In this document: in pieces, positions 28,828-33,790 of the stretch
How the letters are laid out: every line of letters starts with the position of its first letter
How positions within the stretch are numbered: the stretch's first letter is position 1
Assembly: GCF_032062105.1 (NCBI RefSeq)
Contig: NW_026937591.1
Coordinates: forward strand, 1-64,000
Direction of reading: 5' to 3'
Source of the DNA: Saccostrea cucullata
Taxonomy: Eukaryota
DNA length: 64,000 nucleotides
Made by a program: the position numbers and the translations under genes
The notes under the pieces: model-generated
Told to the model about the DNA's origin: nothing
The model's database searches: none
Seen by the model: only the letters and a program-made list of their open reading frames with translations

Positions 28828-30025
28828 TTAAATGAACACATTAACAGTTATGAGTGCAACAACAATGAATACACTTGTAATTAAAGAAGCATGTGTACAT
28901 GGAAGAATACAATGACTACAGTTAGTCATCCCAAAGCCTGGCTGAAGAGGAACATCCTTTCCCTTGGCTCTTTCCTCGACGGCATGAACAAGCCCGGTTA
29001 AGCCGTAATATGTTGCCTCTACATGGATCTGCCTGAGAATGCACTTATCATTCGGGGGGACTTTGGGATTGTAAGTTGACGATCTCAAGTAGTCTAGTAT
29101 ACAGTCAAAATAGCGAGGGTTCCTGTCTAGGTAAAATGTTTTGGTGTCACAGTTAGTGGAGCAAATGTCCTTGGCCACCATTCGGGTCTGACTGCATGGT
29201 CTGTCTGCTAGTCTCAAACCGCCTTCCCTCGACATTTAACACTACCCGTTCCTTTTGCTGTATTTCCAGTCCCTTCATCATTATTTTTCTCTTATCTGTT
29301 GGGTTATATTGCGGGGTTGTAACGTCGGCCACCTGGTACTCCAGAACTGCAGTGTACTTCGAAACTTTCGGTTCCACCGCATGCACTGAGATGTCAGGAC
29401 TTTCTAATGAATTCGCTGACGATCTGTTGGAGGAAGTGCTGCTGGAGGACGATGAAGATGACGTATCGTCGAATAGCCTCCTGTTAACTGTCCTATCTAA
29501 TTGTGGACCTTGTGTTTCAGCTGGTGTTGATTGAGCTTTGGTCTGTGGAATAGGTGTTACAGCTGGCACTTCGACCGATGGAAGTGTAGTTTCTGTTGGC
29601 TTTATTAAAACAGTTCTGCTTGTCACACCAGTTGGTTTAGACACGTTATGTTGCTTCTCCGGCAGTTTTTGCTGCTTCTATAGGGGTTCATTGTGGCTAA
29701 CTCTGATGGTCCTTTTCCCCGTATATCCCTTGTACATATACATAGGGGATATTTTCTTCATGAATGGTTCGACGAACCTGTATCGGTTTCTTTGAAATTC
29801 CGCAAACTCTTTCTTATCAGCTTCATTGAAGGTCATGGTGGATTTCTTTACGGATAATGTATAGCCCTCGCAGTTATGTTTCTGATTACGTCGGAATAGT
29901 ATATATTTGCATACAGAACACTGGAAACCGAATCCCGAATGTGTCGTCGTGATGTTGTGCTGTTCAGCCTGGTGTTGGTGGGCGAATTCCCGCCCATCAC
30001 ACAGTGTGCATTTGAACTTTTGCAC
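28828..30025 (-). pseudogene. Zinc-finger + low-complexity linker + KCTD/T1-type BTB protein; probable third ORF of the Gypsy element
   Basis: Acceptor TTTTATACGTTGCAG|, then CxxC..H..H and CxxC..HxC fingers. In-frame TAG at 29680-29678 separates two same-frame ORFs. RVVLNVEGRRFETSRQT, a frameshift near 29170, then FYLDRNPRYFDCILDYLR..EATYYGL. Confidence 0.78.
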
Positions 30026-30232
30026 CTGCAACGTATAAAATATACAATGTGACTATTTGATTTATAAAACGCACAAAGCAAACACATAATATACATGTAT
30101 ATAACTAGATATAAATCAAATATTTTTAGATCATCAACTTTTTATAAAAGCATAACATAAATAATCTCTTCAATTTCAACAATGTCTTTCAAAGAAAACA
30201 AAATTTCATGCAAAAATAAGCAATGTCAACTA

Positions 30233-32347
30233 CGCAAGTGAGTTAAGGGGGCTCTCTACAACGTCACAACATGGCGTACTTCCGTAAAAACGCCATTTTG
30301 ATCCCAAATTTTCAGATTCAAATTCACTTAACACCGATAAATCACTGACTATAACACAACATGCGATATTGTGGATAAATGTACATTATATCACATCAAT
30401 TAATATGTAGTGTATTGCCCAATACGTATCCTTTCTTTAAAAATGAATTGTTTGTCAATTTATTCAATTTCTACTTATTTAATTATTAAATAATACATTT
30501 ACAAACTTATTAGAATAAGATTTTTAGTTGAGAAAAAATGATATAAAACATGGCTTGTCCATATGCTAATTCATCATTACATGTCAAAACGCCACACACT
30601 CAGAAATTTCTTTCTTCAATAAGCATATATGCTTTCCAGCAAAATATATCCCCCCCAAAAATGCAAATTTGATCAGATAAGACATATGTATTATCTTTCT
30701 ATCGACTAGACGATTTGTATACACCCGAATGAATGGTTATACCCGGTGAAATTTCGCATGACCCAAACGTTTGATCAACATTGATTGTCAGCTGTTTACA
30801 AGTATGGGAAACGTGCAGGTTTTAGACGAAGTGTGCATTTGGTTACAGGAATTTCTTTTACCGCATTTGGCCATTTACCATCTTAACTTGTTTTGTTATA
30901 TATTGCACTGGATAACACATGAAAGTTGGATAAAAACGGTAAGTAAATCTACCTTTCTCAATACCATGAATTCACTAAATACATGTCTGTCATTGACTGG
31001 AAACGCGATGATTTTCGCTTAAACTAATTGAAAAACAATACATGTACAATACGAACTTCTTTTAATGTCCTTGCGTGACATTTGTTTAATACTTGTGCAA
31101 GTAGAGTTTATTTGAAGTTTATATAAAAAAAAAAACAGTACCAAGATATTTGAGTCCACTCTTAGAGCGGATCTCTTACACCTGAATTTTTGTGATGTTC
31201 ATAAATTTTTGACAGTTTTTCAATTTTTTTTCAGTTTTTTTTTTCATTGTTTTTACCCTTTGATATTATATATCTTTTCAAATATTGAAGAGGATCCAAC
31301 CAGCTATTCTCAAGAAAATGCTGTTTTAGTTTTTCTTTTGTCTATTTTTGTAAATTTAAATAAAAATTATGTTCATTTTATTTTTAACTTTGTTGGTTAT
31401 TATTTCAATATTTTATAACACTAAACTTTGAAGAGAAATTTAAAGCAATGGGCATTTAAAAAAAATCGATAGGAGGGATTTTAACAAAATAAATAAAATA
31501 TTTCAAATATTTCTAAAAAATAAATTGAAATACTTTGGAATCTTATTTTATCGGATATGGGGCCTATTATTAGAAACAAATGCATGCAACAAAAATCAGT
31601 TATACTTTACAGGTGTAGAGATCCTCCTTAAGGCTACATATGGAGGTTTCTATGCAAAATATTAATTAAATTCCATAATTACTCTACCTACCGAATAGAA
31701 AATGTTAAAACTTGGTTTCTAATACATTCTTGGTACCCACGACATGCGATTGCCACCACACATTATGACATCATATTATGACGTCATCGGCCTCTACTAC
31801 ACAAGTTTTTAAGAAGCATCAACAAAGTCGCTTCGGCGCAAGGGCATAGCTTACTTTGTTTTACAGAAACAAGGTATAAAAAGACGCAAGATAATACAAG
31901 GATTTAAGATATTGCTGCACAAATGTCGGCACTGCAATTGTTTAGTTACTATTCGTGCAGTTTTAAGTTTAAGCAGGGTAAAAATTCACAGTCCAGTGTA
32001 AGTTTCTTGAAAAATTTATCGATTGAGAAAATGCATAGGATTTGTTCAGCATTTTTAATAATTTTAAGAATATTCTCCTTAATATTATACATTGTTCATT
32101 CAAAATTAGATAGGATATGCCCTTGCGCCGACGTGATTTTGTTGATGAGATTTATTAACTTAAATGGAAGAGAACAATGACGTCATAATATGACGTCATA
32201 GTGTGCACTTGCATTAATAGACTGTGGGCACTATGTATGTATAAGAAAATCAATTTGAACATTCTCTGTACAGAAAATATTAAATTTATGAATTTTTATC
32301 AGCTCATTTGCATAGAAATATCCATATTTAGCCTTAACTCACTTGCG
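30233..32347. mobile_element. Fold-back MITE, CGCA-terminus family, copy 2 (TA TSD), interrupted in its left TIR
   Basis: TA|CGCAAGTGAGTTAA [insert] TTAAGGCTACATATGG...TAGCCTTAACTCACTTGCG|TA; homologous to 5921-6649. Confidence 0.88.
30247..31627. mobile_element. Kolobok-like non-autonomous element with TTAA TSD
   Basis: TTAA|GGGGGCTCTCTACA ... TGTAGAGATCCTCC|TTAA; removing it restores the host MITE TIR. Confidence 0.8.
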
Positions 32348-32357
32348 TATTCAGCAT

Positions 32358-33790
32358 TTACTTCTGATACCACTTAGGTTTATTCTCACCAACATACAGT
32401 TTTAATCTGTTGTGGTGCAAGATATCTCCTTTGTGTTTGGGAGATTTTTTGATTTTATATAGAACGAAATTGTCTAAATGTTCATCAAAACTTTTTGAGA
32501 GGACTATAATATCGTCAAGGTATACTAAACAGATTTTCCAAGACAAATTTGATAGAACTTTTTCCATGAGCCTCTCAAAAGTTGCACCTGCGTTACATAA
32601 GCCAAAAGGCATTTTACGAAATTGCCAGTGTCCACCACCGGGTATCGAAAATGCTGATTTTGGGATATCTTCTGGAGTCATTTCGACTTGCCAGTATCCA
32701 CTCTTCAAATCTATTGTCGAAAACCACTTGGACCCTGATAATGCATCTAGTGTAGAGTCAATTCTAGGGATTGGGTAACTGTATTTGATTGTGATGTCAT
32801 TTAACTGTTGGATGTTTCAATGACCCCTTTATCTAACATACATGTATCTTTAATTTCATTTTGAGCTTCTTGCATTTTTGCTAAAGGAATGCGTCTTGGT
32901 AATTGTTTTATTGGGGGTGCATTACCGGTGTTAATCTTGTGTTTCACTAAGTTTGTTAACCCCATGTCAGTAGAGTTTATTAAGAAACTACTTTGAAATC
33001 CTATCAGCAATTCTCTTAATTTTTGCTGTTGTTCTTGATCAACGTTTTTACTAGAATTTCAAACACAGACTTCAAATGTTCAGGAAAATTTTCATTTGTT
33101 TTCTTCTTATGTTTTGTCAAAACATTTATTGATTAGAGAGTACTTTCAATGATCCCTGAAGTATCTTCTAAATTTGCCACAACAGTCCCTTTGAAAATTT
33201 TGACACTCTGATCACCTAAGTTCATGTATCGAACAGGTACTCTATCAGTTTCAACTTTTGCCAAAATCTTGGGAACTAATACATCATGTTTATCTAAAAA
33301 TTTTGCCACAGGCTCTAACAAAGTAACCTTGTCATTAAATAATGGGTTTTCTACTTTAGCCGGGGCAATGAATTCACTGAGAGGGGGAATTTCTATAGTT
33401 TCTGACAAAAATACCTTACAACATTGCTTATTCAAAGCCTCATGTGTAAAGCAAGAAACGTCTTTCCCCTTTATTCTAAGTTTCATTTTGTTCAACAGAA
33501 CATCACAGTTGTGGTCTTTCATGAAATCTAATCCCAAAATACATTTGTTTTGGATATTAGCCACTAAAACATTCTGATTTACAGTAACATCTCCCACACA
33601 TATTTTCACTAGGCATTCTCCTAGGACAGATATTTTCTCCCCACTAGCAGAGGTTAAATGTACGAATGAAGGGTTCAAATCTAATTTCCCCTTTAATTTT
33701 GAACTGTCTGCAAAATCTGAGCTAATAATTGTTTCACTACCTTCTGTGTCAACCATCATTGTAGTTCGAATGTTCTCAATTTTGCCTACT
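32358..33790 (-). pseudogene. Gypsy pol remnant: aspartic protease, RT N-terminal half, large deletion, integrase C-terminal tail
   Basis: VDT(E)GS and ILGLDF protease motifs; HKINTG..PIKQ.PRR; DLKSGYWQV, MPFGLCNA and YLDDII. Fused at ~32468 to VLYKIKKSP..HHNRLK.Y. Several frameshifts. Confidence 0.9.

Follow-up and report, generated by a model that had tools for sequence, protein, structure and literature searches.

A zinc-finger and BTB gene with a predicted first exon in the long terminal repeat of mollusc Gypsy retrotransposons

Results

A dead Gypsy copy carrying ORF3

We analysed 64,000 nucleotides of the Saccostrea cucullata genome (NCBI RefSeq assembly GCF_032062105.1, contig NW_026937591.1, positions 1 to 64,000 of the forward strand), hereafter the window. 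Its minus strand holds a dead and deleted Gypsy retrotransposon that belongs to a mollusc clade with a third open reading frame (ORF), ORF3, between the integrase and the 3′ long terminal repeat (LTR); ORF3 encodes two zinc fingers (ZF), a linker and a BTB domain. All parts of the copy lie on the minus strand. The 5′ LTR (TG...ACA; 35504-36678) is 88-95% identical to the 3′ LTR of the relative C10084 and matches ~40 LTR loci elsewhere in the genome sequence. It contains a TATA-like box (36223-36230), found at a similar position in the LTRs of nine subfamilies and presumably part of the promoter. The primer-binding site (PBS; 35484-35501) is of a type that we take to be tRNA-Leu, and gag (33993-35354), interrupted by stops and frameshifts, shows a weak SCAN/PNMA-like capsid match. 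What remains of pol is the aspartic protease region (33133-33807; Pfam gag-asp_proteas, E 1e-7), the broken N-terminal half of the reverse transcriptase (RT) through its YLDD motif (32466-33058; RVT_1, E 3e-21) and the last 36 integrase residues with the pol stop at 32360-32358 (32358-32471; Integrase_p58_C, E 0.001). The original prediction, made from the letters of the window, described pol as merely decayed in the manner of gag. A tblastn comparison with the full-length, 1321-residue pol of a relative reveals instead that residues ~542-1282 are missing; this part of about 740 amino acids comprises the C-terminal half of RT, RNase H and the zinc and catalytic core domains of integrase, and the RT half joins the last 36 integrase residues directly.

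The spacer between pol and ORF3 is occupied by a miniature inverted-repeat transposable element (MITE; 30233-32347) with a TA duplication, and the corresponding site in C10084 is empty. A further copy of this outer MITE lies at 5920-6649 of the window. Nested in it is a TTAA-flanked, non-autonomous element with GG...CC ends (30247-31627). The earlier description of a MITE enclosing a Kolobok was correct as to the MITE, its duplication and the nested insert, but the name Kolobok depends on Kolobok-like ends and on features (TTAA duplication, RR...YY ends, transposase) that we take to define that group. Counting with the insert removed places the pol stop 215 nt from position 30025, as had been claimed.

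There, a T-rich tract with a predicted splice acceptor AG at 30027-30026 (30026-30045) precedes a frame that opens with the acceptor-like TTGCAG|GTG and has no ATG. As delimited by alignments and by the AlphaFold model of a relative, the zinc-finger domain (29756-30025) consists of a C2H2 finger (C-x2-C-x13-H-x4-H), a C2HC finger (C-x2-C-x10-H-x-C) and a helix. It is followed by a basic stretch and a Ser/Thr/Pro-rich linker predicted to be disordered (29252-29755), and by a KCTD/T1-type BTB domain with a C-terminal tail (28922-29251; BTB_2, C-terminal piece E 9e-9). These are the domains named in the original prediction. Its account of the decay holds for the single stop (29680-29678, inside the linker), which the window copy has in common with a 99% identical twin on C9693, but there are two frameshifts, one near 29181 and one near 28937, and the gene ends not at 28828 but at the stop used by the relatives, 28924-28922. 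The 3′ untranslated region (28100-28921) lacks a polypurine tract (PPT) and a 3′ LTR, and similarity to the relatives stops at ~28100, where the copy breaks off. No second LTR is present in the window, the 5′ LTR matching only itself.

ORF3 is encoded by the element

The finger domain of ORF3 has 75 matches in the S. cucullata genome. Linkage was examined at 56 loci, 30 of them returned by the finger search and 26 fetched. The integrase C-terminus lies no more than ~430 nt upstream of the fingers at 42 of these, and the BTB domain follows the fingers at 49. Two of the 14 loci without integrase are the window copy and its twin, in which the MITE lies between; the remainder are read as decayed fragments. 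We read 25 loci in full over 10-20 kb. In twelve, gag, pol and ORF3 stand between paired LTRs of 91.5-99.8% identity. Another retains its LTRs and ORF3 but is deleted for most of gag-pol, and in a further one gag-pol-ORF3 is present but an LTR pair was not detected. The remaining 11, the window's twin included, are partial copies or fragments. Intact relatives display the features of Ty3/Gypsy elements, namely TG...CA LTRs, a PBS, a PPT that sits after ORF3 and target-site duplications (4 bp, around several copies), and the 1321-residue pol of C12931 has the motif order protease-RT-RNase H-integrase. An accessory gene in the env position, bounded by a Gypsy integrase and a 3′ LTR, had been proposed from the window alone and is borne out by these copies.

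Nine subfamilies (A-I) possess an open ORF3 of 353-441 amino acids with 32-45% identity to A, and the Cys/His ligands of the fingers are invariant among them. An independent entry through the integrase gave 152 genomic matches, of which 40 loci were fetched: seven carry both ZF and BTB, among them the new subfamilies J, K and L, one has fingers with no BTB seen, and six are clade members without ORF3. In the integrase tree, from which the locus L157 was omitted as too short, every ZF-BTB element falls into a single clade (18 of 44 rows, support 99/96).

Synonymous sites are saturated between subfamilies, with nonsynonymous divergence (dN) of only 0.2-0.9, and closer ORF3 pairs give dN/dS (dS, synonymous divergence) of 0.03-0.28 where dS is measurable. 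Between the window copy and C10084, dN and dS are 0.067 and 1.65 for the fingers, 0.073 and 1.09 for the C-terminal half of the BTB, and 0.14 and 0.67 for the linker with the N-terminal part of the BTB. The ratios of 0.04 (fingers) and 0.07 (BTB C-terminal half) indicate purifying selection on the ORF3 domains. A captured, functionless host fragment, or a host gene adjoining the element by chance, might be considered because host BTB genes also occur in the window and the window copy is broken. Those host genes are, however, of the BTB-BACK-PHR type, a different class; ORF3 is multi-copy and lies inside LTRs; strong purifying selection acts across its saturated subfamilies; and the element BTBs separate from the sampled host KCTDs (split support 94, with few outgroups). 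This explanation is refuted, and we assign it a negligible probability. ORF3 is a real gene encoded by the element and not a host gene, a point on which we have next to no doubt.

A predicted first exon in the LTR

In every subfamily a T-rich tract and YAG stand directly before the first conserved ORF3 codon, in sequence that is otherwise unalignable. Since the YAG is an in-frame TAG in subfamilies C, E and K, no upstream ATG can read through into ORF3. In nine of nine subfamilies, the ATG nearest downstream of the TATA box begins an open stretch of 8-15 codons that ends in Arg-Trp, Arg-Met or Gln-Lys and runs into a phase-0 GT(A/G)A donor, ~80-150 nt past the TATA box. By comparison, an open in-frame ATG lies 15-51 nt upstream of only 2 of the 72 other GT(A/G)A sites in the same nine LTRs. 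The later-found J and K show the same arrangement (13 codons, GTAATT); in L, exon 1 was recognized by eye and has a weaker donor. The window copy contains a predicted coding exon 1 of 13 codons ending in Arg-Trp (36097-36135), in the predicted R region, followed by the predicted phase-0 donor GTAATT (36091-36096), which is conserved in all nine subfamilies and in J and K. Because AATAAA comes after the donor, the donor is expected within R and hence in both LTRs.

Splicing would join the short ATG exon of the 5′ LTR to the acceptor after integrase and would remove everything from the PBS through gag and pol, so that the spliced RNA would lack a PBS; on unspliced RNA the same ATG would give a short upstream ORF of ~10-20 codons. 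No conserved donor was detected in the leader or gag with a generic donor weight matrix. A gag-internal donor suggested by the Magallana gigas model K1RLN7 was rejected, the matching site having no GT in A, D and E, and so was the in-frame ATG just before the acceptor of one B copy as a general start, C, E and K having a stop there.

Copies that have lost ORF3 also bear on exon 1. Four ORF3-less copies of subfamily E (L146, L147, L148 and L161) are ~94-97% identical to ORF3-bearing E over most of the aligned internal region and are devoid of the acceptor and most of ORF3. Exon 1 is frameshifted and preceded by a new upstream ATG in three of the four, and in two the GT is lost as well. The only ORF3-less H copy has a stop within exon 1 and no GT. 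Seven non-autonomous A elements are likewise without ORF3; seven of their LTR rows, representing six elements, were aligned, and coding exon 1 is out of phase in all of these. The coding role of the predicted exon thus appears to tend to decay along with ORF3.

The proposal that ORF3 is expressed by splicing agrees well with the invariant acceptor and the matching ATG exon, and we consider it very probable that the ORF3 mRNA is spliced from the LTR exon to the acceptor after integrase. Several observations speak against this model. The junction is deduced from DNA only; the anchor for exon 1, the first ATG past the TATA box, was picked after the LTRs had been inspected; of 14 LTRs, a first automatic rule assigned phase 0 to just 9 (three wrong TATA picks, two earlier weak GTs); and the LTR donor matches the generic consensus weakly, below the score cut-offs applied. 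In addition, L148 retains an intact-looking exon 1, L131 has no ORF3 but still an exon-like stretch, and the donor motif is kept in six of the seven ORF3-less A rows. The last of these findings suggests that the donor may serve a further purpose at the level of RNA.

A 12-nt U3 motif, CCGAA(A/T)TTCCTC (window ~36525-36536), is present in 9 of the 12 LTRs compared from subfamilies A-I and in all three LTRs of ORF3-less E copies. It is absent from all nine outgroup LTRs and turned up once in 1450 shuffles. It is a candidate factor-binding site.

Repeated loss of ORF3

Full-length relatives with the PPT and LTR directly after integrase had been named as a finding that would speak against an element-borne gene. 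Some close relatives do have this structure, but the cases in E and H are deletion derivatives by alignment; as judged from these alignments, they descend from ORF3-bearing families and are harmless to the assignment of ORF3 to the element. ORF3 was lost independently in three or more sublineages, of which two are multi-copy. All seven fetched paired-LTR relatives of the window's own family (L176-L182) are non-autonomous, with gag, protease and a short pol remnant, and contain no ORF3. The opposite state is seen in the young element C15084 (L076/L077; LTRs 99.8% identical), which has lost most of gag-pol but kept exon 1 and an open ORF3 of 391 amino acids. Because young ORF3-less copies with intact pol exist, such as L146, ORF3 is not needed in cis, and its repeated loss with a mostly decayed exon 1 argues that it is accessory.

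The spread of lineages that dropped ORF3 could be explained if ORF3 were a negative regulator, either a self-limiting copy-number control or a repressor, and BTB-zinc-finger proteins are indeed often repressors. Yet such loss, even in several sublineages, is equally expected for a trans-acting helper borrowed by cheats, and C15084 did the reverse in keeping ORF3 while losing most of gag-pol. We therefore regard negative regulation as very unlikely.

Relatives in other molluscs and sister clades

Profile searches and cluster look-ups identified ZF-BTB relatives in Saccostrea cucullata, Magallana gigas, Pinctada imbricata, Pecten maximus, Dreissena polymorpha, Mytilus edulis, M. coruscus and M. 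californianus, and in the snail Gigantopelta aegis; linker-BTB or shorter relatives were found in Ostrea edulis and Magallana angulata. Among the 150 hits listed, 66 were chosen for a single long match, and a BTB is also present in 15 of these. None of the metagenome and viral contigs scanned contained a relative. Outside the S. cucullata genome, linkage is read from gene models in which the ZF domain is continuous with parts of pol. Four Mytilus models (P0113, P0238, P0111 and P0151) have RT or integrase fused directly to fingers (E 6e-18 or better against pol), a Dreissena model has a short integrase-like piece (E 5e-4), and a Magallana model has, by eye, the gag N-terminus and then fingers from the same acceptor. 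These models, themselves predictions, would place ORF3 beside Gypsy pol in other molluscs.

Sister Gypsy clades carry third ORFs of ~190-630 amino acids that begin with a C2H2-like pair and continue into a clade-specific tail, most with their own Met (L133, L134, L135, L136, L137, L138, L139, L140, L141, L142, L153, L154, L155, L158, L159 and L162). In L137 the third ORF apparently continues in frame from the integrase end. Elsewhere, a Gypsy third ORF at L163:7732-8652 resembles SGNH/GDSL hydrolases (E 6e-4, below the cut-off), and L145 has a large unclassified ORF of 732 amino acids after integrase.

The ORF3 protein and its possible function

All nine intact ORF3 proteins match BTB_2 (PF02214; best E 1.5e-18) and two of the nine match zf-C2H2; BTB_2 and zinc fingers are the only Pfam domain families in ORF3. 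In the AlphaFold model of a relative, residues 1-90 form a confidently predicted finger domain (predicted local distance difference test ~90), followed by a disordered linker and the BTB. No transmembrane segment was found, the highest 19-residue hydropathy being 0.37-1.38 in 12 of 12 proteins. This bears on the question whether ORF3 spreads the element between cells as an env-like or movement protein. The env genes of errantiviruses (insect gypsy) and retroviruses are expressed from spliced subgenomic RNA; ORF3 resembles them as a third ORF between integrase and 3′ LTR that starts at a predicted splice acceptor. Unlike env, however, all 12 proteins lack a hydrophobic segment of the signal or transmembrane kind and the domains are of intracellular types, and both the predicted donor and the ATG belong to the LTR and precede the PBS. 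We disfavour an env-like role as practically excluded.

ORF3 shares the T1-type BTB fold with the KCTD family and, like ZBTB proteins, has BTB and zinc fingers on one chain. KCTDs carry their BTB N-terminally, and ZBTBs use an N-terminal BTB of the PF00651 class; ORF3, by contrast, carries a C-terminal BTB of the KCTD class (PF02214), and the gene is element-borne inside LTRs. The solved structures nearest to it in sequence are KCTD5 and KCTD9 (E 1e-21 to 4e-21), and the nearest in fold are KCTD10, 16, 1 and 15, with Foldseek target template-modelling scores of ~0.8 to KCTD10/15/16. As a member of this family, the ORF3 BTB would be expected to form a homo-oligomer, either a tetramer or a pentamer. 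The ZF and BTB trees are poorly resolved, and no donor or age claims are based on them.

For the fingers, the top structural match is an archaeal virus finger (Z 5.1). DNA-binding tandem C2H2 pairs superpose weakly (Z 3.5-4.0, root-mean-square deviation 2.1-3.0 Å, ~50 residues), and an Atlas look-up of the domain retrieved only generic C2H2 clusters. A Lys/Arg-rich stretch follows directly. Sister third ORFs keep the C2H2 pair but change the tail, which identifies the fingers as the common core.

We tentatively favour, at slightly less than even confidence, a finger-directed, BTB-multimerized nuclear regulator that acts in trans. Oligomerization of the BTB would give several finger pairs per complex; the fingers would bind element DNA or chromatin; and ORF3 would transactivate or counter silencing in trans, favouring expression of the element itself. 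Recruitment of Cullin-3 (Cul3) could add to this role, although the evidence does not require it.

Alternatively, ORF3 might be mainly a Cul3 substrate adaptor, with the BTB on Cul3 and the fingers on a host silencing or restriction protein destined for ubiquitination. The original prediction had suggested such an adaptor, or an anti-silencing factor, by analogy with lentiviral Vif/Vpx. It is a role for which poxvirus BTB-kelch proteins are a precedent and which we rate as unlikely, if still worth serious attention. The host genome has a Cul3 gene, the finger domain is compact and includes an additional helix, in contrast to a simple array of DNA-reading fingers, and the best solved-structure matches, KCTD5 and KCTD9, are predicted Cul3 binders (PMC10856315). 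According to the same study, KCTD BTBs divide into Cul3 binders and non-binders, the α2-β3 loop is the main contact and decides much of this division, and long or proline-rigid loops are tied to non-binding. In ORF3 the length of this loop differs between subfamilies by as much as 13 residues, and prolines are frequent in it; moreover, the non-binders KCTD16, KCTD15 and KCTD1 match well too, and sister third ORFs have fingers without any BTB. The regulator is favoured over a pure adaptor by this variable loop together with the weak likeness to DNA-binding fingers, the basic stretch, the missing transmembrane segment and the sister C2H2 ORFs, yet the two roles are not mutually exclusive.

C2H2 and C2HC fingers can also bind RNA, and the linkers of J, K and a snail ORF3 relative are Arg/Ser-rich. 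Both facts would fit an RNA-binding protein or particle scaffold that serves RNA export, packaging or protection from PIWI-interacting RNA processing, the BTB only multimerizing. Against such a scaffold, the structural neighbours of the fingers are, weakly, DNA-bound pairs, and ORF3-less copies amplified nonetheless; we judge it quite unlikely.

The trans-acting regulator has to be weighed against contrary observations as well. No Foldseek match to the finger domain reached E ≤ 0.001. The second finger is C2HC, and the inter-finger linker departs from the TGEKP type that is canonical for DNA binding. Finally, L146 has an open pol and LTRs that are 99.8% identical, and it has no ORF3. Taken as a whole, the best explanation of the data, a mollusc Gypsy clade with a spliced ZF-BTB gene whose product is a nuclear regulator favouring element expression, seems to us evenly poised between right and wrong.

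Other features of the window

Pieces of host BTB-BACK(-PHR) genes, whose BTB class differs from that of ORF3, cluster at 7985-8761, 48554-49682 and 54631-57283 (plus strand). Crypton-like tyrosine recombinase ORFs with QRICH1, DUF3504 and phage integrase matches lie at 18283-19924 (minus strand), and a fragment of a DDE_Tnp_4 (Harbinger-type) transposase at 14059-14724 (plus strand). An interleukin-17-like frame at 62990-63466 (minus strand; E 3e-4, below the cut-off) has related stretches near 11226 and 38414, the three copies being 85-87% alike. Two stretches are duplicated at 98-99% identity (21747-22854 and 42074-43190; 12689-13412 and 40305-41028), and an array of a ~146-bp unit occupies 4563-5505.

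Discussion

Foamy viruses carry regulatory ORFs 3′ of pol. Their major donor is an LTR site that precedes the poly(A) signal, and U1 binding there suppresses 5′ polyadenylation (PMC3694450). ORF3 elements likewise have the predicted donor in both LTRs, upstream of AATAAA, but unlike in foamy viruses the LTR exon is predicted to code and env is lacking; the likeness is one of layout. With the mollusc Ty3/Gypsy elements surveyed in PMC6238403 (C-clade/Mag, MolGy), intact relatives have in common the order LTR-PBS-gag-protease-RT-RNase H-integrase-PPT-LTR and 4-bp target duplications. Compared with that survey, the ORF3 clade adds the ZF-BTB gene and its putative first exon in the LTR. The words ORF, BTB and zinc do not occur in the main text of PMC6238403. 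Non-env accessory genes are likewise known from the plant Gypsy aORF/eORF elements (cited in PMC8220671) and from DAM-LTR/EpiLTR (bioRxiv 10.64898/2026.05.21.726589), with different domains and hosts; the terms BTB, zinc finger, mollusc and bivalve do not occur in the EpiLTR text. The literature searched, which did not include Repbase reports, the majority of subscription journals or the supplements of PMC6238403 and PMC10294476, yielded no description of the ORF3 gene.

Accounts of animal Gypsy elements generally give them gag-pol and, in some cases, env. In the elements studied here, a non-env and apparently intracellular regulatory gene is kept, in a clade that extends across bivalves and a gastropod, under strong selection and with a start codon predicted to be embedded in the LTR. 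Some bivalve gene models labelled 'KCTD-like' or 'BTB domain' probably represent transposon genes, a point to consider when the expansion of the BTB family is counted. As copies with ORF3, copies without it and a copy with ORF3 but little of gag-pol coexist in one genome, the question of a trans-acting regulator or silencing antagonist is directly testable. A bolder proposal is that this widespread clade encodes its own counter-silencing factor, a pentameric, DNA-binding Cul3 recruiter expressed from an LTR exon, and is one branch of a large radiation of C2H2 accessory genes in mollusc Gypsy elements; we hold this to be possible but doubtful. If it were true, mollusc Gypsy elements would count as 'complex' retrotransposons that carry regulatory genes like those of retroviruses and have cheaters complemented in trans.

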